Positions 6,269-54,900 of a stretch of DNA of 64,000 bases are shown piece by piece. Position 1 is the first letter of the stretch. Each line of letters starts with the position of its first letter. Where the stretch lies: the NCBI GenBank assembly GCA_003971905.1, contig RSEE01000004.1, positions 682,001-746,000 of the forward strand. The letters run 5' to 3'. The DNA comes from Moniliella sp. 'wahieum'. Lineage: Eukaryota. Position numbers and translations under genes: made by a program. Below the pieces are notes generated by a model, which worked only from the letters and a program-made list of their open reading frames with translations, was not told the origin of the DNA and did no database searches.

Positions 6269-9200
6269 CTAGGTGTAAATCTTAAAAGTGAGCTTGTTGA
6301 CCTCGGGACCCTCGGTCTCCTGGAACAAGTCCAGCTTCTCGAGGAAGTGGGTGGGGAAGCTGATGAGCGAGCCGCGGATACCGGACAAGCGCTGCTTGAT
6401 GTAGCTAGACGGCATTGTCGCATCCGCCACATGGCCCCGCTTCTGCGGCGGCTGGGGATAGAAGGTGTAGTACTAGTAGTAGAAACGCACAGGAAATTAA
6501 AGAGAAGAAAAAAAGTTAGCACGTATATGGGCACAAAAAGACAGATTCCTAACTCACATCCTTCCAATCCAGCACCGAATCGTCCGGAACGGGGTGGAAA
6601 AGCTCGGCGTATATGGCGGTATTTTCCTGCACCTGGGCATTCCAAGTGGCGAACAAGTCGTCCGATAGCGGATCGGCCACCCGTCGCTCCCATTCGTCCT
6701 CTTGTTCGTTCCCCGTCTCACGCGAGGGGTCGGGGTTGGGGTGCGGAGCGGGACCATGGCATCCGTCGGATAGCTGGCGGCAGTATCGGCATTGCATTCT
6801 TGCGGAGCAATCCAGCCGAGGTGCTGACGCCAGAGGAAGCGACGGAACGAGGCGGCAAACTTGGATGCCTCGTACGGCTCCCCATCCATCGTCGACGCAA
6901 ACATGTCCGAATCCTCAATCACCACCGCCACTTCCGAATCCCGATCGCCGCACATAGACCGGTCGTTGATGTTTGCGGAACCGATAATGACCCGACGGTC
7001 GTCAACGATCATCAGCTTGGAGTGGATGTAGGTTTCTCGGTGACGTAGTTGTCCTTCTCGTCTTCCTCCCCGGCCCAGTACTCGTCGACGGTGCTGGGCT
7101 GGCCTTCGAGAATGTTGCTGGCGATCGAAGCGCGCTGTTTCGTCAGGAACGAGTGCGCTGAACTGGGACAGGACGCGGTCTGCGTCCGCAGCCGTGGGAG
7201 GGAGTGGGATCGGCTTGAGCTCCGGCGGCTTGTCTTCCTCATGGCTCTTTGCTTCGGCCTTGGCAGCAATGGCGCCCAACAACGACCGCGGTTCTTCCGA
7301 TCCCTCTTCGCGGTGCGCTCCTCGGGCTGCTGTGGGGACTGGTGTTCATCCTCTAGACTCTTCTCGTGGGCCTTGGCAGCAATGGCTGCCAAGATCGACC
7401 GACGCTCTTCTGAACGTTTCGCCTTGATCCTCGCCGCCCCATCGGACAGCAGCTTGAACTTTCCAACAAGGACGATTCGGGTGCAATGCGCTGCCCACGA
7501 CGGCCGTTCATCTCATCCACCTCCTGCACTGAACGGATGGTGACCTCAGGATGGTCCTTGTACCACGACGCCGAGTCTTGCGGTAAATCGCCCAGACACT
7601 GTTTCTCATACGATGCCTCCATTCCCACGTACGACACGCCACTTTCCTGCTCGGCACGTGCAATGCTGGGGCCATCGTAGAGAATTCGGTCCATAGCACG
7701 CAGGTTGTAGAAGGAGATATAGTCATCGGGGTTGACACCGGCCTGCTGCAGCAGCCCAAAGATGGACGTCGGGCCACGGCAGATGCTACGGTACTGGTAC
7801 GCCATGATCGCCAGCAGTCCGTCCGCCTTGTCCAAGTCGCCGGCGAAGCAAGGAATGCAAGGAATGCAGATCATCACACGGACTTGGTTCCCTCCCTGGC
7901 AGCACGGAGGATGCGGTGAACCAATGCTTGGCCCAGCTGGTTTTCAATTTCTTTATCCTCGGGCGAGGTGGCAGTGATAAAGAATTGGTTTTCAATGTAA
8001 ATGCAATGCTCGGCTTCCTCGATCAATTTGCAGTAGGCCGTCTGGATCGAGCATTCCTTTAGAATCCCGAGCTCCAATCCGCCGACGAACGCACCATTTG
8101 GATCTTGCACGTTCCATTCGAAGGCCAAGGCGCATGGGGCGTCTGATACGGCACCCGGCTCGGCGAAAAGGGGTGCAAAAACTTTTCGCCCACCTGCTCC
8201 CACTGGGTAGTGAGTGGATGGGCTCGCACCTCGGGGTACGCCGCTCTACATCCTCCACCCGCAACGCGCCGTGGGGCAAGGCGAGCTGGGTATACTTGCT
8301 GTCGTCCTTGTACTCCGGGGTGGTGGTGAGGACAAAGTTCCACCGCTCCACCACGTGCCGCGCCATATCCAGCGCGACGGGGCCAACGATGGTGACGTGC
8401 ACATCGTGCCACGGCATGCGCGGCACGGTCAAGCGGCTCTGGTTGTTGCTCAAATAGTCGGTCACGTTTTGGAAATCCTCAATGCGCGAATTGTTGTAGT
8501 CTTGGCCGGGGAAGAGCGTGCGTTGCATGTCGGACGGATGCACGTCGGCCAACGGGTGCGAGTGCGTGTCCCACCGTCCAAAACACAGATCCAACCCGCC
8601 CACACAGACCGCATGGTTGTCCACCAACACTACTTTCTGTCACGATACGCACAGCATGATGGAAATGGTAAGTCTCATCCGTCGCACACCACTTTCTCCT
8701 CTCCTCTTCAACCTCTTCTTTTCTCCTTTCTCCTTTTCCCACAGCAGCCACGGAAGCCAAGGTACATACCTCGTGGTGCGACCAAAAGAGCGTAGTGGAA
8801 GCAATGTGGTCCGGGTGGCGCAGGGCCTGCATGTTGGGGTGGAGGCTGTTGATAGTCGACAGTGTGGCGGGAACTGTTGGAGGCCGTCTGGGTAACTTCC
8901 TCGTAGACAATGATGCGGATCTTGACGCCGGCCTCGGCCTTGCGCTGCAAAAGCCGGTCCAGACGGTACTCGGATAGAGTGCCGGCGGGCGGCGCAGATA
9001 TACTACCAAAGAAATAAGGAGAAAAGGGTCAGTTGCGTTCCATATCCTCCGCAAAAGAAAAGGCGCATTAGGGAGAGAGAGAGATAACGAGATGAACGAA
9101 AACGGCGTACGCTCGGGGGAAAGCCACCAGTCAAAGATGACAATCACGTCCTGGGCATTCTCTAGGATTTCGACACGGCCCAAAAGTAGTCGTGGCCGTC

Positions 9201-10781: not shown

Positions 10782-11797
10782 ATGGTCTTGCGCTTGTCCC
10801 TTCTGTTGCCCTCCGGCACGGCGCGCTCCGCCCAGCCGTGTTGCTTCCGCGCATGGCCTACGCCCCGGCGCGTCTCCCGCTTCCTTGGCCTCCCTCCACA
10901 CCTCCTCCACCACTCCCGCCCAGGTGCACGAGCCGCCAGCGACCGAGGGCGCGACATCCACGACAACCACGTATGGGACGCGATCCAGCGGCAGGAAGCC
11001 GAGAACCCGCATGATCCAGCCGACAACCCGATTTGGAAGCAGGACAAGGAACTCGTAGATGCGACGGTGGTGCTGCAAGAGAGTGGGACGACGCATGTGA
11101 CCAGTGTTCACCGCCAAACTCGTTTCTTTGCCGGCGAGGATCTTAGCGGCCAACCCAAAGCTGTCCGTGGGGGCATCCCAGGCTTTGTCTACCCTTCGCA
11201 AGACCCGGAGAACCCCGAGCCGCTCTGGCCCGACTGGGCCAACAAGCCCTCGATGTCAGAGCGCTGTTTAAGCATGCGTTCCTCACGGAAATTGCGCGGG
11301 GTATGCTGGTTGTCTTGGCCAACTTTTTCCGTCCGCCGTACACCATCATGTACCCGTACGAAAAGGGTCCGTTGAGCCCTCGCTTCCGTGGTGAACACGC
11401 CCTGCGGCGCTACCCTACCGGCGAAGAGCGATGCATTGCCTGCAAGCTCTGCGAGGCCATCTGCCCAGCCCAGGCCATTACCATTGAATCGGAGGCGCGT
11501 GCCGATGGGGCAAGGCGTACTACCAAGTACGACATTGACATGACCAAGTGCATCTACTGTGGCTTTTGCCAGGAGGCGTGCCCGGTGGACGCGATTGTCG
11601 AGACGCAAAACGCCGAGTTCTCGACCGAAACGCGCGAGGAGCTCATGTACAACAAGGAGAAACTCTTGGCTAATGGCGACCGCTGGGAGTCCGAATATGC
11701 TACCAACCTCAAGCAGGTACGCCCTTCCCTCACATGCGGATTGCGACTGGAACTAATCACTTCTCTACTGCTCTTACAGGACCACCTGTATCGTTGA
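10782..11797 (+). CDS. NDUFS8: NADH:ubiquinone oxidoreductase TYKY/23 kDa Fe-S subunit
   Basis: [39 protein letters not shown] and [12 protein letters not shown] (2x 4Fe-4S); intron ~11717-11779 before DHLYR*. Confidence 0.97.
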
Positions 11798-12386
11798 TAG
11801 GCATCGCTTCCTTTGTTGCAATGATTACATTCTGCTCTCTCCGGCTACTGGCGTTGATATATGGCAGGATGGGGCATAACATGTTCCGGCACTTGGGGGG
11901 CAGCCGGCGCAGGAGAGAGGAGCGAGCTTGAGAAAAATGAAGGGTGGAGACCTTGACGGGCGAATGAGGTTGAAGGTTGAATGGACGTGGAGTGGTGGCG
12001 ATGGTGCTTGGGACCATACCCCCCGAGCTTCGTCTGCTTTACCCATCGTCACTGGCGCTATCGTCAACGCCGCATACGCGTGATCATTGATGCGTGTGTA
12101 CAAAGTGGCTAGCGGCCAAGTTGCCTTCACGCTTCACGCGTCACGCTTCAAACTTGGAGCTTCCAGTTTCAAGTTGAAGTTTGGCTGTTAAATGATAGCT
12201 AGGGTTACGAAGATACTGCCCTCGTGCTGGATGGGGTTCATCCATTTCAAAAATCAGGGTTGCGCATCTACCTTCTGCGCGCGCCCAAACAGTTCCTGCC
12301 GAACAACCACAACGGGAAACCACAACACGGCCACAGCCACAGCCACACCACCATCTCCTCCGTGTTCGTCTTCGTCTCTGGCGGCC

Positions 12387-14813
12387 ATGTCATCCACTGT
12401 GTTTTCTCTTGCGGGCCAAAATCTTAGCTCGACTCGGCGGAGGACATTCGTCCGTACGCCGATCAACTGGCTGCGCTCCCTGCTGTCACTGAAATCCACC
12501 TCGGCGGCAACACCCTGGCGTGGCTGCTGCTGAGGCCCTGGCGACCGTGATTGGCACCAAAAAGACGCTCAAGGTATGCTATCCCTCGTTTTTTCCTTGA
12601 CGGGAAAGATGGAGCGAGCTGCTGACTTCTTTCCCTCGCTCTTTGGCTAGGTTGCCGATTTTGCCGACATTTTACTGGGCGCCTCATTTCTGAGATCCCA
12701 GATGCGCTTCGGGCGCTGTGTGGTGCTTTTGCCCACCTCATCTCCTCCGGTGGTGCGTTGGAAGAGGTAGATCTGTCGGACAATGCGTTTGGTGGGCGCA
12801 GCGTTGAGCCTCTTGTTCCACTCCTCGAGCTTTCGCCTTACATCAAGGTGCTAAAACTGGCCAACAATGGGCTTGGCCCTGAGGCGGTGCGGTCGTGGCT
12901 GATGCTTGACGCGAGGTGCAGAGGAGGCGAGGTTGAAGGGGTCCCCATCTCAGTTGCGAGTGATCGTCTGCGGGCGGAACCGACTCGAGGATGGCAGTTC
13001 GTCCAACTGGGCCAAAGCGCTGGCGAGCCATGGCGCACTGGAGGAGGTGCGCCTGTACCAGAACGGGATTCGGATGAAGGGCATCGAAGCGATTGTCTTG
13101 GATGGCTTGGCGAAGAACCTCAACCTGCGTATCATTGATCTCCAGGACAACACCGCCACTCTTCGGGGCGCCCGGGCTGTGGCCAAGGCGCTTCCCAACT
13201 GGCCGCACCTCACTGAACTTCAACTGAGTGAGACGCTACTTCGCCCGCGCGGGGGACGAATGGTGATCGAATCTCTGTCCAAGGGGTACAAGGCGATGAC
13301 CAAGATTGGCCTGGCATTTTGTGATTTGGGTCCGGACAGCATTGCCGGTCTGTCAGATGTGGTACGGGCCATGCCGGCGCTGGAACATGTGGACGTGAAC
13401 GGCAACTTTGCTGAGGAGGATGGGGCCGAGCTGGAAGCACTCCGTGAGGCGCTCGAGGCCATTGGGCGAGCGGATGCGTTGGCCGAGACGGACGAGATGG
13501 ACCCAGAAGGTCTGGAGGATCTCTCCGAAGATGAGGACATTAGCGATCGCGAAAGTGAAGACGAAGCCGAGGCCCAAGAGCCTCCTCCTGCCCCCGTTGA
13601 TGAGGACGACGAGCTGGCAAAGCGGCTTGGTGCTGTTGGTTTGAACGATGTCAAGCCGTCTGCTGTCTTCAGCTTGGCTGGGCAGGGGCTCAGGCTCGAT
13701 TCTGCTGCTGACATGGAGCCGCATCTCAAGTTGTTACGTTCCCAGCAAGGCGTGGAGGAGATCATCCTGTCGGGAAACACGATTGGGGTAGGTGCCGCTG
13801 AGGCACTGGCAGAAGTTATCAAAACCTTGCCGACGCTCAAGAAAGTCAACTTGGCCGACATTTTCACTGGCCGTCTGATTTCTGAGATTCCTGATGCTCT
13901 CCGGGCCTGTGCTTGGCCCTCACAGCATTGTCCCACCCCATGGGAGCTTGGAGGAAGTGGACTTGTCGGACAACGCGTTTGGCGGTAGATCGGTGGAGCC
14001 ATTGGTGCCTCTTTTGGAAGTGGCGCATTCGCTGCGTGTGCTCAAGCTGGGCAACAATGGCCTCGGTCCCGAGGGAGGCGCTGTCGTGGCCAATGCACTG
14101 GCCCGTGGGGCCCAGCAGGCTCGCAAAGATGGACAAACGTCCAAGTTGAAGGTCCTCATTTGCGGCAGGAACCGTTTGGAGAATGGTAGTGCTGCGGCCT
14201 GGGCTACTGCTCTGTCAGCTCATGGTGAGCTGGAAGAGGTACGGCTCTACCAGAACGGAATCCGTATGGAGGGGATCGAGACCATTGTCTCCGCCGGTCT
14301 GGCTGTCAACAAGACCCTCAAGGTGGTGGATCTGCAGGACAACACGGCGACGCTGCGGGGAGCCAAGGCGGTGGCCAAGGCCTTGCAACAGTGGCCTGAG
14401 CTGGAGGAGCTGCAATTGAGTGAGACGCTCTTGCGTCCCAAGGGTGCGGCTTTGGTTGTTGAGGCCCTCCGCACTGGCGGACACAAGAACTTGCGCCGGC
14501 TTGGCCTTGCGTTCTGTGACGTGCCTGCTTCGACATTGGCCACTCTTTCGCCTTTGATCAAGGAGCACAAATGGGCCCTCGAGCACATTGATGTGAATGG
14601 GAACTTTGCCGAGGAAGAGGGTCCGGAGATCGAGTCTTTGCGAGAAGCTCTTGCATCTATTGGGCGGGAACATGCTTGGCAGACACGGACGAAATGGACC
14701 CTGAGGGAGAAGACGACCTGTCGAGCGACGAAGATGTCTCCGACCACGAGGATGACACAGAACCGGCACCTGCTCCTGAGGTGAGCAAGGCGGTAACTTC
14801 GGCGTCCAAGTAA
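12387..14813 (+). CDS. RNA1: Ran GTPase-activating protein with two complete LRR GAP domains in tandem
   Basis: Each half carries VFSLAGQ, ADIFTGRLISEIPDALRA, EEVDLSDNAFGGRSVEPL, CGRNRLE(D/N)G, LEEVRLYQNGIR, DLQDNTAT and an acidic tail; intron 12574-12650 in the first half. Confidence 0.93.
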
Positions 14814-15060
14814 TCGTGACGGTCTTTTGCCTGTTACCTATTAATCACCTACCTATCCTCCGTTACCCACATCATCACCCTGACGCCACTGGACTGTCGT
14901 GTTTTTCCTGTTGCTCATGCCTACCTGGACCCTTTAGGGTCTGCCAGCATGATGCAGATTGCTCGTTGAAGAATTGGCACTGAAGAATAGCCGGACGGTT
15001 GTAGTAGATGAATGATGGCAGCCGAAAGAGAAGACAAATGCAATGTCCACGTAGTGCCAC

Positions 15061-16272
15061 TCAGGCAAACACGACCGTCTTTGCGCCGTTGGGCAGGACG
15101 CGGTGCTCAGCCATCCAGCGTACGGCGCGGCTGAGCACGCGGGCTTCAATGTCCGCACCAATCTGTACCAGATCGGAGGGAGAATCCGAGTGAGCCACAC
15201 GTTCCACGTCCTGCTCGATAATTGGCCCCTCATCCAGATCGGCAGTGACGAGATGGGCAGTAGCACCAATGATCTTGACCCCACGGTCGTATGCCTGATG
15301 GTAAGGCTTGGCGCCCTTGAAGGAGGGAAGGAAGGAGTGATGAATGTTGATAATCTGACCCGAGAGGGCTGTACAAAGCTTATCGCTCAAAATTTGCATG
15401 TAGCGTGCCAGCACGAAGCTCAACGTCATATTTCTTGACCAGCGCCATAAGTTCCTCTTCTTGCCACTCCTTCGTTTTCCCCGAAGCGACATCAATCGGG
15501 AGGTGGTAAAAGGGAATTCCATGCCGCTCCGCCAGCGACTGGTACGTCGCATGGTTCGAGACAATCAGTGGGATATCAATAGGCAGCGTGCCCGAACTGT
15601 GGCGGAAAAGAAGGTCATTAAGGCAGTGACCAATCTTGCTGACCATAATGAGTGTACGGGGGCGAGCATCAGCGCGGTGAAGGTGGAAGTTGACGTCGTA
15701 GGGACTGGCCAAGAAACGGGCAAAGTCGCCTCGGAGCTCGGCCATGCGGGCTTCGCGCATCGTCTCGGCCTCTGCCGGGTCAGAGGGAGTAGCACCGCGA
15801 GGAAGCAGCCCCGTGGCATGAACGCGCATGAAGAACCGATTTGTCGTGGGATCGCCAAACTGATCCGAGTTGATAATGTTAAAGCCACGCTGGGCCAAAA
15901 AGCCGTGACAGCATAAACTATGCCGCTCTGGTCTGGGCAAGCGAGCGTCAAGATAATGTTGTTCACCTCAGGGTTCTGCTTGCGCTTTGGGTTGGCGGTC
16001 GTCTTGGACGGCTTGGGCAGGGGCGAGGGGAAGGAAGGGGCGGAAGCAAGAGAAAGAGACTTCAGGTCCTCCGCGTCCTTCTTTTGTCGCTGCGCTTGCT
16101 CCAGATGGCTTTCTGGGTGTTCAAGATCGGCCAAAGAGCGGATGGAGCGGGCCAAGAATGGAAATTGAGCAAGCTGAGGTGCAGCGATTGCCCTAGAGGG
16201 TAGGGCGCGCACCGCAGAAGAAGGAATGCGGCAGGAAGTCGCCAGTACACGGGAAGAAAGCAGCGTCATCAT
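15061..16272 (-). CDS. purU: Formyltetrahydrofolate deformylase (ACT + formyltransferase) with probable mitochondrial presequence
   Basis: [81 protein letters not shown]. Confidence 0.96.
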
Positions 16273-17138
16273 CGTGGCTCCAGAGAGAGAGTGAACGAAG
16301 AAGAATAGCCAGGAAGTTGGTGGTGGTGAAGGTTATGATGGCGATAGTACCCAGAGTCACTTGCACGGAGATAGGCCACCATTTCTCCGCCAAGAAAAAA
16401 ACTCTCCGCCGCGTCCCGTGTTGCGTAGTACTATCGATCGGCGGGTACACTCGCCGACGTTTTAAAAAAGGAAAAGCTGGCGCTCCAGCACATCCACCAA
16501 CATGCTGCATGAATCGTCTCCACGACTCCCATCTACCCTTCATCGGTTCTGGTACCTGTGAACGCCTTTCTCACCAAAGTGTAGTCGGTTACATTGGTGC
16601 AAATCTGCTACTCGTAGATCATAAAGCGTCCGCGAGAGTATAGGTGAGAGATGGGCTGCTGCAGAGAGCCAACAGGAGGAAATCTCGTGAAGCTTTTGAA
16701 GGGCCTGAAGAAGATATTGGGGGGCATGCAGTCTGGGATCAATCAAGGTAGCGAGCACCTTGCGTCTTGCGCCCACTGGTACTGATCAATGATCGATGAT
16801 CGAGATGAGATACCCAGCCAGGCCAGCCCGTCGGCCCTGATCCAGACCGAGTACGAAGGTGTGCAACTGAGTACACTGACATCTGACACTGAGTACTGAC
16901 GCGTGACGGACGATTGGCGGCGCGGCAATTAATTGGTCCGCTGTTCCAGCACTAATAATCCACGTCGGCGGAACCAGGGCGGTTGTGCTGGGTTCGGGCG
17001 CAATAATAAGCCACTACACTTGGCCTGTGCCAGGGGGGCACACGCAACCCTACGTTGCTTGTTCCAGCAACGCACATCTTCTGGGCCCTCCCGTCCAACG
17101 CACACCATACCCTCCCCATCCACGTATCCATCAACGCC

Positions 17139-17971
17139 ATGTCCGCCGACAAGTTGCCCCAGGTGCTCAACATCACTGAGGAGGAGGTCAAGCTCTTCCT
17201 GGCTGCCCAGACCCACATTGGCACCACCAATGTGACCAAGGACATGGAGTCCTACATCTACAAGCGCCGTGCTGACGGCGTGCAGCTTATCAACCTCAAC
17301 AAGACGTGGAGCAAGATCGTCCTCGCTGCCCGCATCCTTGCTGCCGTCGAGAACCCTGCCGACATTTGCGTCATCTCGGGTCGCCAGTACGGCCAGCGTG
17401 CTGTGCTCAAGTTCGCCTCGAACACGGGCGCTACTGCGATTGCCGGACGCTTCACCCCCGGTACCTTCACCAACTACATTGTCCGCTCCTACAAGGAGCC
17501 CCGCGTGATTGTTGTCACCGACCCCCGCGTTGACCACCAGGCCATCCGCGAGGCGTCCTACGTCAACATCCCCGTCATTGCCTTCGCCGACGCTGACGCT
17601 CCCCTCAAGTTTGTCGATGTGGCTATTCCCGGCAACAACAAGGGCAAGCACTCGGTCGGCCTTCTCTGGTGGCTCCTCTGCCGTGAGGTCCTCCGCCTCA
17701 AGGGCACCGTCTCGCGCACTGAGCCGTGGAGCGTCATGACCGACATGTTCTTCTACCGCGACCCCCAGGAGATCGAGGCTGAGCAGCAGGCTGCTGCCGA
17801 CGCCAAGGCCGCTGCCGAGCGTGAGGCCGAGGCTGGCGAGCTTGGCGAAGTTCTCCCTGCCACGGGCGCCCCGAGGCTGCCGCGCTCGACTGGAGCGAGC
17901 AGGCCACCGGCGCTCAGGACTGGGCCGCTGACGCTGCCCCCGCTGTCCAGCCCATCACCTCTTGGGAGTAA
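17139..17971 (+). CDS. RPS0: 40S ribosomal protein uS2 (S0/SA), intronless; tail frameshifted
   Basis: [69 protein letters not shown]; strong codon bias. Confidence 0.98.
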
Positions 17972-20184
17972 GTGTCTCCCCGGGAGACTGGGAAGAACCA
18001 ACTCGATAGGCCTGTCCGTCCTTTTCCGATGTGTGACGGTCTGTTGAGTGTCTTAAGCCATGGCGACGGTGACGTCCTCAACGGCCAATCATCTTCCCTG
18101 CATGCTCTTGCTTCAACTCTCTGCCGTGAGATGGTGCAGGATCATGTCCGTTTGGAACCCCCCAAAATATGCATGCCTCATGCCCATGTTCGCTAGTAGC
18201 CCAGTCTGTAGGAAACATCCCGGGCTCTCAATTGTCCTGAAACGTGGTTTTGCACACTCATTGCTAGCACCGTTCGCGCCAGTACACTGAGCTGCGGAAC
18301 CAATGCTTGCCTCGTACTTGCCTCTGTCACCAGCCATCAGCCAGTTCTTACAACTGGTGTGCCATGTACCTTGCGCGTGCCCGTGCCCGTGCCTTCCGTC
18401 GTGTACCCGAAGCTCAATGCCAGCTTGACGCGCTGGTACAGCTCTGCCCAAAAGGCCTATCCCATATGGATTTTTCTTCTGCCCGCCAGACCATATATTC
18501 TTCAACACTTGTCGTGTTCAACGACGACAGTGTCACTCGCCCCTGTTGCCTTTGAGCCACACTTGTTCTTATTCATCTCATTTACTGAATGCTCCGCTTT
18601 TTCCGAAGAGAGGATCGATGTACGGGCATTGTATTCCTGGGCCGTCACTTTGCAGCAGTACCACTCCCGTCCTTATCCGACGCTCCTCGGCCGCTGGGGG
18701 GGGAGGGCCTGCGCGTGGCCGTCCGACGTGGCGAGAGACACAAATAATCCAATCGCTTACGCATATCTCGTGCATCTCACGTCTAATATACCAATCCATA
18801 CCTCTTCTGTCCCTCCATACTACGGCAAAGAAGCAACATAGTGGGCACAAAAGTAAGGTGCCCGTTGGATTCGGGGACGCACAGTGTATGTCTGTAGCAT
18901 CTTCCAGCCGACGGAGGAGGCGCTTTTCCTTGCAAATTATAAAGCAGTACAGAACGGCACGTGTATAGCGGGTGGAGCGCGCGTGGCCACAGGGTATGTG
19001 CCACGTTTCCGATGGCGGGGTTGGGCATGGGGGCAGTGCTTATTTACAGGGGCCGAGCTGCTCCAGGCTGCTCCACACTCTGACAAGTTGGAGCTCCTGG
19101 GTGGGCAAAAGGCACCAAAGCGCTTGTCGCTCTCGCTCCTGAAACATCATTATGCACCTCTGTTGCCCCCCCTCTCGCCTTGGCATCATGCATCACATGC
19201 ATCACACCTCACAACGATCTCAGTGCCGATTACCCCCAGGTCTCTCGCCCCCATGTATCATACATAGCAGTGGTGCCTAATTCATACTATTGTATAACGC
19301 GCTATTAACGAGTCCCGCGTTCTGGGGGTAGTACTCAGACGGATTCAGTAAGAAGAGCCCTTCATCGCGGCCTTATATGTACTCACTGCAACGAGTACTG
19401 AAACTGACCTGAACACACCCCGGCAGATCATTAGGATTCTCGCGAGCAGCGTCAACAAAATAGCCCAACAGCACCACCATTAGGGGGAAGAGGGAAGTGT
19501 TCCTTGTTTCAACGAAGCAGAAGGGGGGCGAGCATACGTGTCTTAGTTCGAAAGAGATACCCTGTTCTTTACTAACGTTGCCTAAGATAGTTGAGGAAAG
19601 ATAAGAGGCGCGTTCGATCAATGTGAAGAGAGCGATCGATGACGATGACAGGCCGTTCTGGTACCGATTGTACAGGACCTGCGGGCGACAGACTTGACGC
19701 TTGAGCCTCAAGAGTTACTACGTTGTTCCTACGTTGCTGGCAATCCTGTGGCGTTGTAACATGTGGTGCTTGCGCGCCCTATGTTCCTACGTTATGAGGA
19801 GGGCTAGGGATAGAGGCATGCTATTCACAGGCGTTTCATCACTTATACTTCTTGCGCCTATAGAGGCCCACATTCTTCTATTGACACCCCCCCACCCCCC
19901 CACCTCCCCTCACACATCTTTACCTTACACATTCTTTTCTTTTCCTCCTTTCCCTCCCCCCCCTCCCGCTCCCACCACCAACGTGCAACACAGATACCCA
20001 TCGAGTCTCATCCCACTAAGAGCTGGCCTCAAGAGTGAGTGACACTACCCCTCTCGCCCCGTTTTTCCCTCTCCAACCCATATCCCAGATCAACCTTTTC
20101 ACCTCTTCCTGTCGCCACTTCGCCTACATTGTGTGGCCCATATCACTCTCCTTTTACCGACGTTTGGTGTTACGACTCTCGAAC

Positions 20185-21585
20185 ATGCTAGCCAATCACT
20201 TGTGTTGGGTCTCCACCCTCATTCTCGCCCTCGCCCTTGTGTGTGCCCCCTGCGCTGCAGCGCACCAAGACTCCCTCCACCATCGTCCCAGCCACTTGCG
20301 GAGGGCCAAAGCTGTGTACCCCAACGTGACTGTACCCCACCATAATCGTTTGTCGGGTTACGTTCGCCCAGGCGCGGTTGTTCCCCAAGGTCATGGATCT
20401 CTCACCCGAGCAAAGGGGCTCGGCCGACCGAGCCGCCCTGAGACAGAGCAGGATCCCTCTTCACTTCTATCGCACCAACAGAAGCGGGGGGGAAAGAAAT
20501 ACCGAGGCGTGAATTTGGGAGGGTGGTTTGTGCTTGAGGCATGGATGACCCCGTCCATCTTTAGCCAGTTTGGTGATTCGCGTGTGGTGGATGAGTGGAC
20601 GCTGGGGCAGTACGTCCCGCACAATAAGGCGGTTCCTATCCTCCAATCACACTGGGATAGTTGGCTGCAAGAGACGGATTTCGAGCAGATGAGTCAAGCT
20701 GGGCTTAACCTGGTTCGCATTCCCGTTGGGTACTGGATGTGGGACAAGGACAGTGCCAATGAGCCCTATGTCATCGCGAACCAGACGGCTTATCTCAAGC
20801 GCGGAATCCATTGGGCAAAGAAGTACGGCTTGGAGGTCATGATTGATCTGCATGGCGTGCCTGGATCGCAGAATGGCTTTGACACCTCGGGGCACACCAA
20901 AGAGACGTTCAACTTCCACGATTCGCCTGTCAATGCGCTACGTGCTGTGCGTGTACTCAAACATATTGCCCGCGAGTTTTCCCAACCAGAGTTCAAAGAT
21001 ACGGTGACGATGATTGAGGTTATTAACGAACCGTTGTGCGACCACTCGGATGAATTGCTGGACTATGTGGTTCAATACTACCACGACGCGTACGCGGCTA
21101 TTCGGCAAGTTGCTGGGAACGACATGAAAGTCGTTTTGGCAGATGGATTTCTCCCGCTGTCACAGTGGAATCAGATTTTGGCTAACACGAGTTGGTCTAA
21201 CGTCTTGATCGACACTCATGCCTACCTTCAGTACTACAATGCCAACTTGGGTCGCGAATCTAGCATTCCTTACACCCAAGGTGCTGCGACGAGCGAGTTA
21301 TGCTCGTATCAAACCCTCCTCAACAAGAGCAAGTACCATGTCCTAGTCGGCGAGTTCTCGATGAGTATGCCGTCTTGCCGCACCTGCTGGTCTACCCCCA
21401 TGGCAACATACCCCTTCCTCCAGTCCACCTTCCAGACACAGGCTTCTGTGTTTGAGTCGGCGGCCGCGGGATGGTCGATGTGGGCATACCGTATTGAGGG
21501 TGATGCTCCTGGGTCGTACGAAAGCGGGTTGACCACAGGGTGGATCACCAAAGAACTGGGCCAATACAACTTGGCCAAGTGCTGA
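20185..21585 (+). CDS. Secreted GH5 exo-beta-1,3-glucanase (glucan 1,3-beta-glucosidase)
   Basis: Signal peptide, propeptide ending QQKR, RGVNLGGWFVLEAWMTPS, GLNLVRIPVGYW, IDLHGVPGSQNGFDTSG, catalytic INEP and VGEFS. Confidence 0.95.
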   Translation: MLANHLCWVSTLILALALVCAPCAAAHQDSLHHRPSHLRRAKAVYPNVTVPHHNRLSGYVRPGAVVPQGHGSLTRAKGLGRPSRPETEQDPSSLLSHQQKRGGKKYRGVNLGGWFVLEAWMTPSIFSQFGDSRVVDEWTLGQYVPHNKAVPILQSHWDSWLQETDFEQMSQAGLNLVRIPVGYWMWDKDSANEPYVIANQTAYLKRGIHWAKKYGLEVMIDLHGVPGSQNGFDTSGHTKETFNFHDSPVNALRAVRVLKHIAREFSQPEFKDTVTMIEVINEPLCDHSDELLDYVVQYYHDAYAAIRQVAGNDMKVVLADGFLPLSQWNQILANTSWSNVLIDTHAYLQYYNANLGRESSIPYTQGAATSELCSYQTLLNKSKYHVLVGEFSMSMPSCRTCWSTPMATYPFLQSTFQTQASVFESAAAGWSMWAYRIEGDAPGSYESGLTTGWITKELGQYNLAKC

Positions 21586-22140: not shown

Positions 22141-22909
22141 CTAAGCCTCCACCTCCACCTCCTCCGCATTTTCCCACCATAATGGGCTTCCGAGACCAGA
22201 GGAAGAGATACCGCCCTATTTAGAAAAAAAGTCAGTGAATGTTGGGAAAATGGGTAGGAGAGGCCTGCGGAGAGGGGAAAGCGCAACGTACAGTAATGAT
22301 ATAGGGTGCTTGTCGTGTTGGCACATCTCCCTCTTCAGCTCTTGGTGCGCCTGGTTCATCCTCTGGGAACTCTTCCGCCTCCACGCGGAAGCGTAAGATT
22401 TCTCCGCGGCCAAGATAGGCGCGCTCTTCCTTGGGTACGTCCAGTGCGGCCATTTCGTTGTTGCCTTCGAGGGCAGCGTCCAGGTCTTGGTCGGCCGTCT
22501 CGTCGACGGCGGCTGTGGGAGCCCAGAACCAAGCGTTTTCGGAATGGTCGTATGCTCGTGGTGTGGGTATGAAAGCAGCCGGGATGAGAATGTCGTCAAA
22601 GAAACCGAGGCTGACTTTGATGCGGTGCGGGTCGACGTGGGAGATGCGGCCGACCAGAACTTCTCCGATGGCGGGGCGAAACACAACGAGGCGGAATTGG
22701 GTATGATAGTAGAGTTTGCCGTCGCCCCAGCGCACCTTTCCTACGCCAGATGAGAGCACGTCGTGCACGCACACGCACAGTCCCACGCCAGCAATCACTC
22801 GGTTGGCATACTGTTCATTGATCGAGGCGACAATCGCTTCGTAGGGGGTGAGACGCTGGGCGGATGCGGGCGCTGCGATCACGTCCTCAACCGTTGAGAG
22901 AACGAACAT
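22141..22909 (-). CDS. RPC25: RNA polymerase III subunit C25 (RPC8)
   Basis: MFVLSTVEDVI..INEQYANRVIAGVGLCVCVHD..FRLVVFRPAIGEVLVGRI..SLGFFDDILIP; intron 22216-22291; last exon GGISSSGLGSPLWWE. Confidence 0.93.
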
Positions 22910-23591
22910 GTCCGGTGCACTGCCCGGTCCGCACCGCGTCGTGGCGGTCGACGCGATTCGAGAGGAGGGGGTGAGGAAAGGAGAAAAGGGAGGGGGTGGG
23001 CGTGGCCGGGAGGCTCTTCGCTCGGCCGCCGTCGAACTTGTTGACTTCAACGTAGAGACCTCAGTCTGAGGTCTGAGGCCAAAATGTTGTCGCAACGGGA
23101 GTAAAAAAAGCAGCGGACAGTGGGGGATTACCTAATGCGCAGAGGCAACGTTGTATTAGTGTTGAGAGAAGAGAGCCTGTCGGCTTTGGGATCGGCTCGC
23201 TTTTCCACGTTGTGGGTGTCAGAAACATCACTGGTTTTGCTCCTTCAAGCTTCAGACCCCCGGGCCTGGAACGAAGGAGTAAGAACATCACAGGCTCGGT
23301 CTACCTTTCCATATGCGCCTACATTAACAATCGTTCCGTGGAAATAGCCCGCCATTCGCCACCAAGTCCCGGAAGCGCCGCAAAAGGAAGGTGAGGCTCT
23401 GAACCCGTATGCAGTTTCCAGAGACCAAGTGAGGTACAGTGACTAGTGACCCCATGACACTACATCCATCACCACGCCACTTGCCCTGATGGACCACCAT
23501 TCGCATCGGCGATGGCGGTCAAACCAAGCCGGCAAAACTGATCAGAGTTGCACAGCGTGGTGCCGCAACATGCGGCAGCATCCCGATACCC

Positions 23592-48356: not shown

Positions 48357-49393
48357 ATGGCTGGCGTGCACGCATATGCGCATCTCCTCCCGCCTGCCTG
48401 GAAAGGCGTGATTGCCGACTGGCTCAAGGAGGATTGCCCTTCGTTTGACTGGGGTGGCTATGTGGTGGGAGAGGAGGTGGACGGCGACCTTGTACCAAAA
48501 GGCTGCTGGTGTGGTGGCGGGCGTTCCATTTTTTGATGAGGTGTTCCATCAGGTCGGGTGCACGGTCGAATGGAAGACGCACGACGGCGCGTTCAATTCC
48601 CCCCAAGGCAAGATGGCCGTTGCCCGCGTCACAGGACCGGTTCGCAAATCCTCTTGGGCGAACGGGTGGCCCTGAACACGCTTGCACGTTGTGTCGGGCA
48701 TTGCTACCGCGTAGGTTTCCCCTCTTTTTTTTTGCCTCTTCTGCCCCCCACACACACACAGTTACTCGTGAGCTGACTGTGACTGTGTGATTCTTGTTCT
48801 GGGCGTTAGGTCGGCCAACTTGGACGCCGCTCGGTCCAGTGGGTTCAACGGCATCATTGCCGGTACGCGCAAGACACGCCCGGGTTCCGCTTGGTAGAAA
48901 AATACGGCATGTTGGTGGGTGGAGTGGATGCACATCGGTACGACTGAGCAGCATGGTGATGCTCAAAGACAACCACATTGTGGCTGCTGGTTCGGTCCCG
49001 GCCGCTGTGGCGGCCGCCCGGGGTGGCTGGGTTTAGTGTGCGGATTGATGTGGAGGTGCAAAACGAAAAGGAGGCCGAGGAGGCGATTGCGGCCGGTGCC
49101 GACGTGATCATGCTGGACAACCTCGATGGTCCCGACTTGGGCGCCACGGCCAAACGGTTGCGTACCCAGTTTGGCCGGGAGGATGTCAACGGCATGCATT
49201 GCCCCCAGCTGGGTGCCAGCTCGCTTCCTGCCAAGCAACCGTTCCTCCTCGAGTCCTCCGGTGGCATCACGCTGGCCAACCTGGAATCCGGAGGTCACTT
49301 GGACAATCGATTGACATTGTTAGCACCAGTGCCATCCACCAGTCCACCAAGCACATTGACTTTTCGCTCAAGGTGGACCCTACCCCCCCGTAA
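48357..49393 (+). CDS. BNA6: Nicotinate-nucleotide pyrophosphorylase (quinolinate phosphoribosyltransferase)
   Basis: WLKEDCPSFDWGGYVVG, ILLGERVALNTLAR, IAGTRKT, EKYGMLVGG, LSSMVMLKDNHI, GADVIMLDN, HIDFSLK; intron 48711-48809. Confidence 0.96.
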
Positions 49394-49986
49394 CCCCCAA
49401 GCAAACAATATCGCGCAGGTGAAAATGCATTGAACCTTTTTGGCTTGGCCTTCTTTGGATCCTGGGCAAAACGGACTTGACTCGCATAGTAGAAATTCAA
49501 ACGAGAGAGGGTGGAAGCAACGATCCGCTGGAAAGAAAAAGAGCCATGCCGAGAAAAGAAACCTAAGCCCTAATTAGGCCTTAAGCCCAGTGGAGTGGCG
49601 ACTTCGGCCCTCGGTATTGCGTTGCATATGAGGTCAATCCTGCTGGTTTCCAAAGCCATAACGGCACATCTTTTGTTCCCGAATCTCCTATTGAGCTCTC
49701 CCTATGGTGCGTCGTCTCCCGGCGATGACAGCAGTACCAAGGGTGGGGCAAAAGATATTAGTATCGAATGCCCTCCCGAGCAGGGAGGTAGGGAGGCGAG
49801 AGCAGACTAAATGGGCAGGTACGTCAGAGGAGGAGAGGAGATATGGAATATGCAGAGAGAATGCATGGCGGGCCTGAGAGTAGGTTGGAGGAAGGGAGGG
49901 AAAAGATCCCAAAGCAATGATTGCATCCTTCCCTCCAAGCGGAGAACATGGGGCAATCAAAGTGGGGTTTATTCCGATCCCAGTGT

Positions 49987-50865
49987 TTACTGCTTGAGAG
50001 TCACGCCGTTGGCCTTGGCAGCCACAGGCTTGGGAGCGGTCTTCTTGTACGTCTTGCGGTAAAAGGCGATGAAGAGAACGAGGTAAGAAGACAGGATCCC
50101 GCACCCGGCCCATGCCGCCTGGGGGGCACCGCTGCAGAAACCAAGGTTGGGCAGGATGGAGTCAAAGTACTTGTTGGCGTAAAAGGTGTAGGTGCAACCG
50201 TAGACAAAGAATAGGTCGATAAAGAATTGGGCGATTTGCGACACGGTTACCGCCTTCTTCCAGGGGCAAGGGATGCGGAGGGTAAGAGGGCATAGTAGGT
50301 GTACATGAGAACGTGCACAGTCAGGTTCAGAGCAATCACAATCCACGACACACTCGTCTTGCCCATCAGCTGGCTCCAGCACAGCGCGGCGGTTGCGGCG
50401 TGGTGGTAACATGGAGGAACTGGAGCGGTTTCTTCTTGAGCACGAGGAACACCGTGTCGGCCAGCTCCCAGTACTTGAAGTAGTAATTGACGATGTAGTA
50501 CGTCTCCAAGTGGGCGGTCCAGGCCTTGGGGAGCAGACGGCGTAAAACAGGCCACCGCGGCGGTAGATGGGCAGAACCTCCTCGAGGATAAGAGCCAGCA
50601 AAGGCCGCTACCGAGGTGAGGAGGATGTTGTGAATGAGGAAGATGGCCTTGAAGATGGGGCCCTTGCCAGCGGCGGGGCGGGAGCGCATCAGGGCCTGGA
50701 TACCAAAGATGGTGCTGAGATAGAGCACGGCAGCGGTCACCACCGAAGCGACGGACGAGATGGGGGTCTCGTTGGGCGTCCACTCGATCAGCGAGAGAGG
50801 CGCCTGGGCGCGCACGCTGCCGGGATGGCGGCTACAACCGCATCGTAGATGGGTGTCGAGGGCAT
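49987..50865 (-). CDS. Fatty acid elongase (GNS1/SUR4/ELO family)
   Basis: [77 protein letters not shown]. Confidence 0.95.
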
Positions 50866-51983
50866 GGGCAGGAGGAGTAAGGATGGGGGGGGGGGGGTGG
50901 GGGGCAAACGAAGGGCGAGAAGGCGTAACGAAAGGTGGAGTTGGGAGTGGGTGGACGGGAAGAAGAATGTGGCAGGCCTGCGGGGGACAGCAGGGCGTAG
51001 GGACGAGGGACAAGGGCCCAGCTGCGCGTGTACTGCCCCCGCGCACCGAGCGCAAGGCGTATGGATCTTGAATGGCGCCCTGCCCATCCGCCTGGGCTAC
51101 CCTGACAGCGTGGAGTGCCTGGGGCCGCCCGAGGCGCCACACTGGCCCTGCCAGGCATCTCGGGGTGCTCGGCGATCGGGCATCGCGTGGCGCAGGGGCT
51201 GTGTATTGGATGTGCGCCCTCGTGCGCCCAGTAGCCCCGTGCGCTTCTGCCTCGGACGGCTGAGCGCGCGCTGCTGGGCCGCAGCGCCTGCACGCACTGA
51301 GCGTTGCGTTGAACTCAGCTGCGGTGATCGATGATCTTAGTGCCATAGCGCGGCAGCAAGATGCCCCCGCTGCCTGCTAGCCCTGCCTAACCGGCCTAAC
51401 CCTAGCTCCATCCAGACGGCCTGGGTCAAATTCACATGTCAAAAGGCACATTGATTTAACATTGCAACGGGAGGAAGGCAACACCCGCCCATCGCACTCG
51501 TGTCGGCGTGTCTGCTCGCATCCATCCTCTGGCCGTCCTAGCCTCACCAGTACCTTGATGGGCCCTACACCGGTACTCGGTACCCCATCCCTCCCCTTCC
51601 GGCCGTCCATTGGTCCTTTCGGATGCGCAGCCGAGGATATCCAGCGCACCCGCCCCCTCGCATCGACAGCTTCCGACAGGCTGTAGCTGATTCCAATGCT
51701 GCCGTTGCAGGCCCTTGCCAGGTCGTGACACGTGACACGCGCAGCCCTCCTGCCGCGGCTGGGCAGTGTCCCTCCCAACAGTTTGTCCAGCCCCAATCCC
51801 AATTGAGCCGCCTGTGTTTAAATCCTCTCGCTTATACGCCCCCCAGCACCCGACCCAGCCCGCCGACTCCTCCAACCAAAGTGTTGGGGCCCGCCCGCAC
51901 GGCCCAGCCGCTCCGATGCACCCCATCCCCCCCTCTCTGGCCTGACAACCCTCGTCTTTGCTCCCACCACCACCCCGCCCGTC

Positions 51984-54900
51984 ATGTCTTCCCAGCTGCG
52001 GCTGCGTCATGGCACGACGGTCCGTCGAGCGCACTCTCCCGTGAGCTCACCGCCAAGTGCATCTCCATCATCAACCGCTCCGACCCCGACCTGGTCGAGT
52101 TCATGCAGGCACAGCTCAGCACCATCAGCCCAGCCCAAGGCCCGACCTATGAGCTGCTGGACTACTTTGGCGCCGAGCTAGTTGCCAATTGCAAGGAGGC
52201 CGTCGCCACCGCCCAGGCCCCCTCTGGAAAGAGATGTACGCCTCCACTGCCCCCTGCACCGAGATTGATGCCAAGGGAAACATTATCTACCGCGAAGTCA
52301 AGCGCCAAGGTGTGCGCAAGCTCGAGGCCTACGTCAAGGAAATGGAGACTGGCACCCGCACTGCAGGCACCGTCGCCGCCCAACTCAACACGGAGCGGGC
52401 CCACGAGAACATTAGCAAGCTATGGTCTCTGATCCGCAACGAGCCTTCTGTCAGCAAACTGGGCAAGGCTACCATCAAGAGCTTGTATAATGAAACCATC
52501 CGTTCCCTGGGGCCCCCGCCCCAGTCCAAGCACTTTGTCACCTCGCATCGATCCCGCCGTACATCCGACACGAGCTCGACTGCCGGTCCAGCTTCCGGTA
52601 CTCTTGTCGATGCGCCTCTGCCGGAAGGCCGCCAATCTTTCCTCACTATCCAGCGCAAAGTTGCCGGAAAGTGGCAGCCTTCGGCCAAGCTGACCAGCGT
52701 ATACTTCTCCTTGTTGGACGAGATGGCGCGCGAAGGTCTCACGTTCGAGAACAAGAACGCCTCGTACGTTTCCTCCTTTCCCCGCCAAAGAAGGATGAAC
52801 TAACATATGATTGTTTCTGTTTGGACTGGTAGCTCACCGGTTGGCCGTGGCTCAATCGGATTGGAGATGGTAAAGGGTCTCTTGGCCGGGGGCGCGAAGG
52901 TGGTCATCACCACCTCCTCGTACAGCCGCAAGACGTGTGAATTTTACCAAAAATTCTTCACTGAAGTCGGCTCCCGTGGTTCTTCGCTCACGATTCTCCC
53001 CTTCAATGGATCGTCCAAGCAGGACGTGCAGAACTGGCCGACTACATTTACGACACGATGGGCCTCGACTTGGACTTCGTCTACGCAGGTGCCGCCATCT
53101 CGGAGCAGGGCATGCCCATTGACAATATTGGCGATAAGTCGGAGTTGGCCCATCGTTTGATGATGACCAATGTGATCCGTCTCCTCGGTGCCATCAAGGC
53201 CAAAAAGGAGGCCAACGGGTTTGATTCGCGCCCGACCAGCGTCATTTTGCCCTGTCACCCAACCATGGTCTGTTTGGCTCCGACGGTCTTTACTCGGAGT
53301 CTAAGATTGGTCTCGAGACGCTCGCCAACCGTTGGGCCTCCGAGGGCTGGTCTGACTACCTTTCAATCACGGGTGCTTGCATTGGCTGGGTCCGTGGTAC
53401 GGGCCTCATGGAGCAGAGCAACATCATCGCCCAGGCGTTGGAAAATCTGGGAATGCGAACCTTTAGCCCCGTTGAGATGGCATTCAACCTACTTGGTCTT
53501 TTGCACCCCGTCCTCTCATCCATCTCACAGGTGGAGCCTCTGTTTGCGGATTTGGGCGGTGGATTTGATCGGCTGCCCAACCTGGCTGAGAAGTCGGCTT
53601 CTCTGCGTCAGGGTCTGCAGGAGGATGCGATGTGCAAGCGGATGGTCAACTTGGATGCCTCGGCGGACTTTGTGGTGATCCGTGGTGCAGCGGCGGAGAA
53701 GCTGCACCAAAAGGTATGTCCAGCCCCGTGCAAACTTCCGATTTGCTCCGCCCCCCCTCCCTCCGCGCAAGGAGCTCACCCAACTTGCCCGCCTAGCAGG
53801 CCAACCTGTGACGGATGAGGAACTGGACAAGATTGTGGTCTGCACTGGCTTTGCCGAGGTGGGCCCCTGGGGCTCGTCTCGCACACGTTGGGAGATGGAG
53901 GCGCACGGTGAGTTTACCATGGAGGGTGCGATTGAGATGGCTTGGATCATGGCTTGATCAAGCACCACAATGGTCCCCTCGCAGGTGCGGCAGGCGCCAA
54001 CAGTCCCTACGTGGGATGGGTCGACGCCAAATCGGGCGAGCCGGTGGAGGACAAGGATGTCAAGACACTTTATGAGAAGGACATTCTTGCTCACACGGCG
54101 TCCGCATGATCGAGCCCGAGATGCTCAGTGGCTATGACCCAACCAAGAAGGAGTTTGTTCAAGAGGTTGAAATCACACATGACCTCGAGCCCCTTGAGGT
54201 CTCTGCCGAGGAAGCGGCCAAGTTTAAGCGTGAGCACGGCGACAAGGCAGATGCATGCAAGAAGGTGAGGTATGGCATGTAATGCTCAAGCGTGGAGCTC
54301 GCATCATGGTGCCCAAGGCCATCTCCTTTAACCGTGTTGTGGCGGGCCAGCTACCTACGGGATGGAGCGCGCAGCGCTACGGAATTCCGGACGACATTGC
54401 CAACAATGTGGACCGCATCACGCTCTGGGCCTTGGTCTGCTTGTCAGAGGCGCTGGTCATGTCAGGCTTGGGTGCGAGCGCCTACGAGCTGTACAAGTAT
54501 GTGCACCCCTCGGAGGTGGGTACGTCGCTCGGCTCCGGTATGGGCGGTGTGAGTTCCCTCCACAAGATGTTTGTTGACCGTCGTCAAGAGTCGGAGGTGA
54601 ACAAGGACGTGCTGCAAGAAACGTTCATCAATACCATCGCTGGTGGTGCAACCTTTTGATCCTCTCGGCCTCGGGCCCGGTCAAGATCCCTGTGGGTGCA
54701 TGCGCTACAGGACTTCAGTCGGTCGAGATTGCAGCCGAGACCATTCTCTCAGGCAAAGCCAAGGTCATGATTGCTGGTGGCTTGGACGACTTTGCGAGGA
54801 AGGTTCGTTCGAGTTTGCCAACATGGGTGCTACCTCGAACGCTGTTGAGAGTTGGCTGCTGGGCGCGAGCCTTCGGAGATGTCCCGTCCAACGGCACGCA

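Follow-up and report, generated by a model that had tools for sequence, protein, structure and literature searches.

A fungal gene predicted to encode two Rna1p-type RanGAP units in series, broken by single-base gaps in its present assembly

The 64,000-nucleotide stretch of Moniliella sp. 'wahieum' contig RSEE01000004.1 analysed here (the window) appears to carry a single RanGAP gene at 12387-14813 on the plus strand, with one intron, encoding a protein of ~785 residues in which two complete RanGAP units of the fungal Rna1p type follow each other in series. Nuclear transport is driven by a Ran-GTP gradient whose cytoplasmic end is set by RanGAP, in fungi normally a single-domain enzyme. As assembled, the gene contains eight breaks in its reading frame, which are read here as assembly errors rather than mutations or gene decay. 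The probability of this explanation as a whole is roughly 85%.

The region 12300-14900 was aligned to three relatives by dynamic programming, with codons, introns and frame changes of one base permitted. Against P0003, a full-length relative, the best path starts at the ATG at 12387 and ends 27 bases short of the stop codon at 14811-14813; the alignment to P0002 extends to a residue A at 14802-14804, from which the frame stays open to that stop. These alignments and the list of open reading frames (ORFs) give the outer gene limits, which agree with the positions 12387 and 14813 proposed in the original prediction. In the following layout, LRR stands for leucine-rich repeat and 1k5d_C for a PDB chain of Schizosaccharomyces pombe Rna1p.

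12387..12573, + strand: exon 1, holding the start codon and the 62 N-terminal residues of unit 1 (MSSTVFSLAGQNL...TKKTLK); alignment to P0003
12574..12650, + strand: intron, 77 nt, GT..AG (GTATGC...CTGAC...TAG); intron state chosen in the P0003 alignment
12651..13484, + strand: rest of the unit 1 LRR domain (VADFAD-FTGR ... NGNFAEEDG...IGRADALA); frameshift-aware alignment and 1k5d_C match
13485..13655, + strand: unit 1 acidic tail, ending in the ancestral C-terminal motif DDELAKRLGAVGLNDVK; aligned to the S. pombe Rna1p EDKELADEL end and to single-unit fungal C-termini
13656..14675, + strand: unit 2 LRR domain (PSAVFSLAGQGLRLD ... IGREH); frameshift-aware alignment and 1k5d_C match
14676..14813, + strand: unit 2 acidic tail (LADTDEMDPEGEDDLSSDEDVSDHEDDTEPAPAPEVSKAVTSASK) with the stop codon at 14811-14813; ORF list and alignment

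Central to this layout is a 361-codon stop-free frame at 12903-13988 (stop-to-stop ORF list, standard code), which runs from the C-terminal two-thirds of unit 1 through an acidic stretch into the N-terminus of unit 2. At the junction it reads the acidic tail of unit 1 (...EDLSEDEDISDRESEDE...DDELAKRLGAVGL) and then a second RanGAP N-terminus (NDVKPSAVFSLAGQGLRLDSAAD), a stop-free run that the original prediction had already recognised. The remaining parts of unit 1 lie in other frames (ORFs 12192-12533, 12428-12550 and 12626-13138), and unit 2 is continued in ORFs 13879-14784 and 14592-14813. The description of two RanGAP domains in one reading frame is accordingly half right: the fusion and the clean junction frame stand, but eight breaks and an intron split the gene as assembled.

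Exon 1 passes through reading frames 0, 2 and 1, with single-base gaps near 12427 and 12516. The intron contains a branch-like site (CTGAC) and is confined to unit 1; unit 2 reads through the corresponding position as coding sequence, and its LRR domain has neither an intron nor an initiator Met. The ORFs of P0002 and of another two-unit protein, P0004, begin just before VAD(L/F)ADIFTGR, as would be expected if they had an intron at the same place. The ending of the unit 2 tail is common to P0001, P0002 and P0018.

Near full-length similarity across the LRR GTPase-activating protein (GAP) domain indicates that each unit is a RanGAP of the fungal Rna1p type. Unit 1 (window 12906-13646) matches 1k5d_C residues 155-381 with E 1e-42, unit 2 (window 13951-14676) matches residues 99-334 with E 2e-49, and unit 1 of P0003 matches residues 4-371 with E 2e-64. 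Human RanGAP1 is the next match after Rna1p, and ribonuclease inhibitor and other LRR proteins follow at E 1e-16 or worse. A query unit of 392 residues finds two matches in the window protein, one over its positions 8-380 and the other over 7-390. Judged from the 1k5d_C alignments alone, each unit would form a crescent with eleven LRRs. The accession PF27087 is carried in precomputed protein lists; the Pfam scan did not return it.

Close relatives share the two-unit arrangement. A search among longer proteins with the junction-spanning frame finds 17 proteins at E <=1e-3 (word-indexed, with 8000 candidates scored). P0001 (679 residues) and P0002 (731 residues) are 80% and 78% identical to the junction-spanning query frame over 93% of its length. 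P0003, a full-length protein of 952 residues, joins its two units through a long linker, and P0018 (591 residues), from a search among proteins of similar length, consists of the end of one unit and a whole second unit. The frame is open across the same junction in all four, which settles a point that the original prediction had left open, namely whether relatives share the fusion. Within the P0003 linker, a fragment at residues 411-465 (...FNGNLAREDGSEPEALRVALD...) matches query positions 314-373, where a RanGAP unit ends, and looks like the vestige of a partial third unit.

The nearest named homologues are the single-unit Rna1 proteins of Moesziomyces, Sporisorium, Malassezia, Ustilago, Violaceomyces, Thecaphora and Ceraceosorus, with identities of 46-52% by BLASTP and 50-54% over aligned columns. 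The RanGAPs of Jaminaea, Sympodiomycopsis and Meira consist of one unit and a long low-complexity tail.

Conservation was scored against 111 single-unit fungal RanGAPs of 360-470 residues, in which 86 columns are at least 90% conserved. Of these 86 columns, 73 are kept in unit 1, where 10 are changed and 3 coincide with breaks or gaps; in unit 2, 77 are kept and 8 changed. The kept columns include FTGR, DNAFG, NNGLG, CGRNRLE.GS, QNGIR and DLQDNT. As first described, both units contain DLSDNAFG and CGRNRLE(D/N)G and end in an acidic tail that follows the LRR domain, read directly as ETDEMDPEGLEDLSEDEDISDRESEDEAEAQE... in unit 1 and DTDEMDPEGEDDLSSDEDVSDHEDDTE... in unit 2. Of the DIFTGR reported for both units, the unit 1 copy is read across a break at 12669-12670.

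The FTGR arginine and both CGRNRLE arginines are intact in both units of the window protein, P0001, P0002 and P0003; the sole exception among the named RanGAP motifs is a G->Q change in unit 2 of P0003. In unit 1 the FTGR arginine is residue 74, the same number as that of the corresponding S. pombe residue, Arg74. Both units and the relatives have five changes in common, namely D->E, Q->A, E->D, D->A and L->T, which therefore predate the duplication. One preprint treats the catalytic role of the RanGAP arginines, in FTGR and CGRNRLE, as debated (bioRxiv 10.64898/2026.04.28.721414).

Over 377 aligned codons, the two units are identical at 64.7% of amino acids, 61.0% of nucleotides and 35% of third positions. 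This divergence bears out an old duplication and is too great for an assembly stutter, which is rejected. The 'mean column identity' of 78% given for the DNA of the two units does not measure pairwise identity, and the codon-based 61.0% is used instead. The proportion of nonsynonymous differences between the units (pN) is 0.26, and that of synonymous differences (pS) is 0.775, which is saturated; a low pN beside a saturated pS suggests that both units have been under purifying selection for a long time. Identities between the window protein and its relatives, given as unit 1/unit 2, are 83.1/83.2% for P0001, 82.8/78.6% for P0002 and 59.6/63.8% for P0003, suggesting that the two units evolve at similar rates.

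Like Rna1p, the window protein would work in the cytoplasm and, together with RanBP1, stimulate Ran to hydrolyse GTP. Each chain would carry two catalytic sites, each of which would bind Ran-GTP and, with RanBP1, trigger hydrolysis. It is fairly probable that both units are active GAP modules. By sequence, the earlier view that both halves are probably functional fits the 73 and 77 of 86 columns kept and the equal conservation of the units between species. The original prediction also suggested that the halves may differ in localisation or partner.

A rather unlikely alternative is a fused protein with a single working GAP, the other unit having become a Ran-GTP-binding, regulatory or targeting module by sub- or neofunctionalisation. 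Duplicated enzyme modules in one chain often keep just one active site, and this general tendency favours such a division. So do an E->K change found in unit 1 alone at a column at least 90% conserved, a K->R change in unit 2 alone, and a DELA..L C-terminal motif that is kept in unit 1 only. On the other side, all named motifs and arginines are present in both units of the window protein and of P0001, P0002 and P0003 (apart from the single G->Q change), the units change at symmetric rates, and most departures from the consensus are common to both and are therefore older than the duplication.

The reading of the gene as intact depends on how its frame breaks are understood. Frameshift-aware alignment shows that the assembled gene is not one open frame, requiring one intron and eight single-base corrections. 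In unit 1 the breaks lie near 12427, 12516, 12670, 12882 and 12905 (12902-12905); those of unit 2 lie near 13906 (13903-13915), 13926 (13923-13926) and 14675 (14672-14675). The alignments to P0002 and P0001, both with less coverage of unit 1, require the same breaks wherever they extend (6 and 5, respectively). The frame steps through 0, 2, 1, (intron) 0, 2, 1, 0, 2, 1, 0, so that eight of eight steps are -1, and by comparison with the relatives each break fits the loss of one base from a short run (AA, GGG, TTT(T), GGG, TTT, CCC, AA and TTT). When the breaks are bridged with X, there are no stop codons in 785 codons. The segment 12906-13904 is free of breaks, and the junction is thus read from clean sequence.

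Similar breaks occur in other genes of the window, in which 131 and 147 stop-to-stop frames were scanned against Pfam. These genes are a fatty-acid elongase (ELO, 49990-51376, minus strand), a fatty acid synthase (FAS) alpha-like gene (51542-56300, plus strand) and PurU, a formyltetrahydrofolate deformylase that adjoins the RanGAP gene (15064-16332, minus strand). The elongase lies in three overlapping frames that hold profile positions 2-119, 119-161 and 168-240; the aligned DNA ends and starts at 50408/50411 and 50286/50277, and both steps are -1. The helical domain of the fatty acid synthase spans the frames 51542-52429 and 52153-52800, with a DNA overlap at 52213/52201 and a step of -1. 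In PurU, the residues matching PDB positions 19-167 and 168-286 are on separate frames whose DNA overlaps at 15416/15423, a step of +1 or -2. The ORF list hints at a further -1 step in the N-terminal domain of PurU, which phmmer did not confirm. Introns cannot explain overlapping frames of this kind, and the presence of such breaks in essential genes points to an indel-prone assembly.

A decaying pseudogene, in which the eight breaks are real mutations and a working RanGAP exists elsewhere in the genome, would account for eight frame breaks within 2.35 kb of coding sequence. It is nonetheless very improbable, given that all eight breaks are -1 steps in short base runs with no nonsense codon, that both units are 83% identical to intact relatives, that 73/86 and 77/86 conserved columns are kept, and that ELO, FAS-alpha and PurU show the same kind of break in the same window. 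In the present assembly, the RanGAP locus will be mis-annotated owing to its eight single-base gaps. The assembly needs polishing first, and no gene of the window should be called a pseudogene on frame breaks alone.

The junction joins the two units head to tail, with no stop codon, spacer or start codon between them. The match of unit 1 reaches into the final residues of Rna1p, where EDDELAKRL lies opposite EDKELADEL, and single-unit fungal RanGAPs have the same C-terminal motif a few residues before their stop codon (e.g., Moesziomyces ...TDELASALAKTSLTDAK). At their other end, single-unit fungal RanGAPs start with M and 3-6 residues, followed by (V/I)FSL.G. In the window protein, DDELAKRLGAVGLNDVK is followed directly by PSAVFSLAGQ, so that only 7 residues separate the ancestral C-terminal motif of unit 1 from the ancestral N-terminal VFSLAGQ of unit 2. 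This distance leaves no room for an intergenic spacer and, because the C-terminal motif directly precedes the VFSLAGQ start, a complete coding sequence appears to be joined to a complete coding sequence lacking its start codon.

The linker residues differ between proteins: NDVKPSA in the window, DGGQPAT in P0001, GGAKTHDTS in P0002 and GSGSQTIE in P0018. Of five junction segments, only that of P0001 contains a Met, which lies in the tail of unit 1 and is not a conserved residue; unit 2 thus lacks its own start. An out-of-frame ATG at 13648-13650, followed by TCA, repeats the six bases of the unit 1 start at 12387 and is either a relic start or chance; relatives carry other residues at this place. 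Two separate tandem genes, with a stop codon and spacer hidden by an assembly error at the junction, are hardly credible: an indel-prone assembly and the out-of-frame ATG speak for them, but the ancestral termini, 7 residues apart, leave no space for a terminator and promoter, four independent relative assemblies read through the junction with differing linkers, and unit 2 has no conserved Met.

The single two-unit gene would have arisen when nearly its whole coding sequence, from about codon 2 through the final codon, was duplicated within the gene, in tandem and in frame. The duplication would have taken place in the ancestor of a Ustilaginomycotina lineage, after which it would have been kept under purifying selection. 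For the intron-less state of unit 2, later intron loss after an intragenic duplication would be the simpler account. A retro-copied, intron-less unit 2 is set aside, as the junction has no linker derived from an untranslated region.

Phylogenetic analysis agrees with an origin before the divergence of the two-unit relatives. A quick tree was built from 66 units cut from 47 of 285 proteins, and a careful tree from 41 rows, 25 having been dropped (all nematode, ichthyosporean and Darwinula rows; P0041, P0045, P0052, P0044 and Austropuccinia; and the half-length P0018 unit 1 and P0026 unit 2). Support for the window clade in the careful tree is 100/100. The first units of the window, P0001, P0002 and P0003 group together (98/92), as do the second units of the window, P0001, P0002, P0003 and P0018 (99/91), which implies that the duplication is older than the split of these taxa. 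Members of the clade differ by up to 40% in protein sequence. The clade sits on a long stem (0.61) within the single-unit Ustilaginomycotina group.

Several points weigh against an intact, doubly active RanGAP. Pfam returns only generic LRR families for the frames 12906-13988 and 13951-14676, with LRR_6 above its cut-off in unit 2 only. The breaks are read as errors indirectly, from the window's own sequence, and they are unevenly spread, since a glycoside hydrolase (GH5) frame at 20020-21582 stays open for 521 codons. The relatives are ORF calls on assemblies, three of the four cut at the N-terminus. GAP activity is predicted for either unit from conservation. A second, single-unit RanGAP elsewhere in the genome is possible and would leave one or both units room for changed function.

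Multi-unit RanGAPs are not confined to this clade. A scan of 1.84 billion representatives with unit 2 yields 7692 proteins at E <=1e-3, with 150 of them listed. Among 163 proteins collected, 13 have two or more matches of at least 200 unit positions each (counted for proteins of up to 1600 residues). In nematodes, Steinernema hermaphroditum has three units and Mesorhabditis belari four, partial ones, and multi-unit forms are also found in Ascaris suum (949 residues, named 'Ran GTPase-activating protein 2'), Parascaris, Caenorhabditis angaria (P0287, 953 residues, units at 22-375 and 440-730), Caenorhabditis sp. 36 and Pristionchus. Two-unit forms are present in the ichthyosporeans Amoebidium parasiticum, whose EukProt record bears an assembled-transcript-style name (comp11814_c0_seq1), and Ichthyophonus hoferi, and in the ostracod Darwinula stevensoni. 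In Tilletia walkeri, the fragment P0026 has a 90% cluster mate, P0286 (2458 residues), with units at 455-830, 968-1364 and 1545-1920; P0286 carries an unrelated N-terminal part and for this reason may be partly an over-merged gene model. Most multi-unit proteins outside the window clade are unverified gene predictions.

In the quick tree the units group by lineage, with the nematode, ichthyosporean and ostracod forms far from the fungal clade, which indicates independent multi-unit events. P0004 (929 residues) has two units and branches next to the window clade in the careful tree. A constraint that places its unit 1 among the window clade's first units lowers the log-likelihood by 99 units and is rejected by the approximately unbiased test (p-AU 4.6e-8), whereas joining its own two units is not rejected (p-AU 0.35); the constraint groups were chosen after the tree was seen. 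The P0004 and Tilletia forms would therefore be separate events from the window clade, unless gene conversion, which could mimic independence between units, has erased a shared one. With units grouping by lineage and this result for P0004, common descent of the window duplication with the other multi-unit lineages is rejected, and multi-unit architecture appears to be recurrent rather than unique to the window clade.

In the quick tree, the units within Steinernema P0019, Mesorhabditis P0020 and Tilletia P0026/P0286 are nearly identical (end branches of 0.008-0.06). They reflect either very recent amplification or homogenisation, unless they are artefacts of assembly or gene models.

Among known proteins, S. 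pombe Rna1p (PDB 1YRG; 1K5D/1K5G with Ran and RanBP1) aligns with each window unit along almost its whole length. Both units have its FTGR arginine, CGRNRLENGS, QNGIR, DLQDNT and acidic tail, and unit 1 also has the terminal (E)DKELADEL-type motif. Unlike the window protein, with two units in ~785 residues, Rna1p has one LRR domain and one tail in 386 residues. The single-unit Rna1 proteins of Ustilaginomycotina (Moesziomyces antarcticus, Sporisorium, Ustilago, Malassezia spp., Violaceomyces, Thecaphora and Ceraceosorus) share the N- and C-terminal motifs of the window protein; together with the long-tailed forms of Jaminaea, Sympodiomycopsis and Meira, they have one unit per protein against the window's two. 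P0004 and the Tilletia forms, from the same subphylum, likewise repeat complete RanGAP units in one predicted chain, but with other breakpoints and with long, low-complexity spacers.

The nematode forms, with two to four units, and the ichthyosporean and ostracod forms also place whole RanGAP LRR units in series, as in the window. The UniRef name of the Steinernema record marks a putative RanGAP1 C-terminal domain. P0287 of C. angaria has a long C-terminal extension after its two units, which the window protein lacks. The SUMO-attachment domain found at the C-terminus of metazoan RanGAP1 is absent from the window protein, which ends 45 residues after the last LRR of unit 2; Pfam gives LRR families only for the frames 12906-13988 and 13951-14676, the last 45 residues of the protein lying outside that scan.

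The Drosophila Segregation Distorter element, Sd-RanGAP, is reportedly a separate, C-terminally truncated gene copy that is mislocalised to the nucleus. It shares only the duplication of RanGAP with the window gene, where the duplication lies in frame within one gene and each unit is complete, tail included. The comparison with Segregation Distorter drawn in the original prediction does not carry over, and nothing points to drive in the window RanGAP. Nor is the architecture singular, since multi-unit RanGAPs are already in public sets for Tilletia, nematodes, ichthyosporeans and an ostracod.

The neighbourhood of the RanGAP gene consists of ordinary housekeeping genes, assigned by Pfam:

6557-7345, - strand: PLD-like protein
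11147-11794, + strand: complex I 4Fe-4S subunit (NDUFS8-like)
17010-18044, + strand: ribosomal protein S2/SA
20020-21582, + strand: GH5 exo-glucanase
22235-23131, - strand: RNA polymerase III Rpc25
48960-49430, + strand: quinolinate phosphoribosyltransferase
57435-58106, - strand: glutamine synthetase

The GH5 protein of the window has one close match at 73%, and its nearest named matches, in Tilletia, are 38-39% identical. Together with the nearest named RanGAPs, these matches indicate that the source of the window is a Ustilaginomycotina fungus. Several side observations concern other RanGAPs. The proteins of Jaminaea, Sympodiomycopsis, Meira and the Tilletia cluster (P0005, P0006, P0007, P0008, P0009 and P0286) have low-complexity tails of at least 300 residues, ending in a shared motif, (F)(K/R)AAFGA(I/V)(K/R/W)EL(L)(F)(K/R), that looks like a conserved terminal helix and is absent from the window protein. 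P0044 (1184 residues), filed under the fern Adiantum nelumboides, groups tightly with Meira-type fungal RanGAPs (branch of 0.03 in the quick tree), and P0341, a GH5 protein under the same fern name, stands among mostly fungal GH5 matches. Together, P0044 and P0341 suggest fungal contamination in the A. nelumboides assembly.

Literature text searches, of limited coverage and with subscription papers outside it, found no description of multi-unit RanGAPs. The available part of a preprint on an atypical alveolate RanGAP contains no passage on duplication or architecture. The enzyme itself is ordinary and its family known; architectures comparable to the two-unit form of this fungal clade stand unremarked in public protein sets.

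It is quite doubtful, as a broader proposition, that multiplication of the RanGAP module in frame is recurrent and selected, and that this fungal protein is a bivalent enzyme whose two units cooperate. If so, there would be at least three gains in Ustilaginomycotina (the window clade, P0004 and Tilletia) and more in nematodes, ichthyosporeans and an ostracod, and gains that recur and are long retained would suggest that RanGAP valency or dosage is under selection. A possible cause would be avidity for Ran-GTP export complexes where a RanBP2-type anchor is missing; alternatively, genetic conflict over the Ran gradient, of the Segregation Distorter kind, could be responsible. A clade with two complete, equally conserved predicted catalytic units would offer a natural test of RanGAP valency or dose, and the independent forms in Tilletia, nematodes and ichthyosporeans suggest that the answer may be general.

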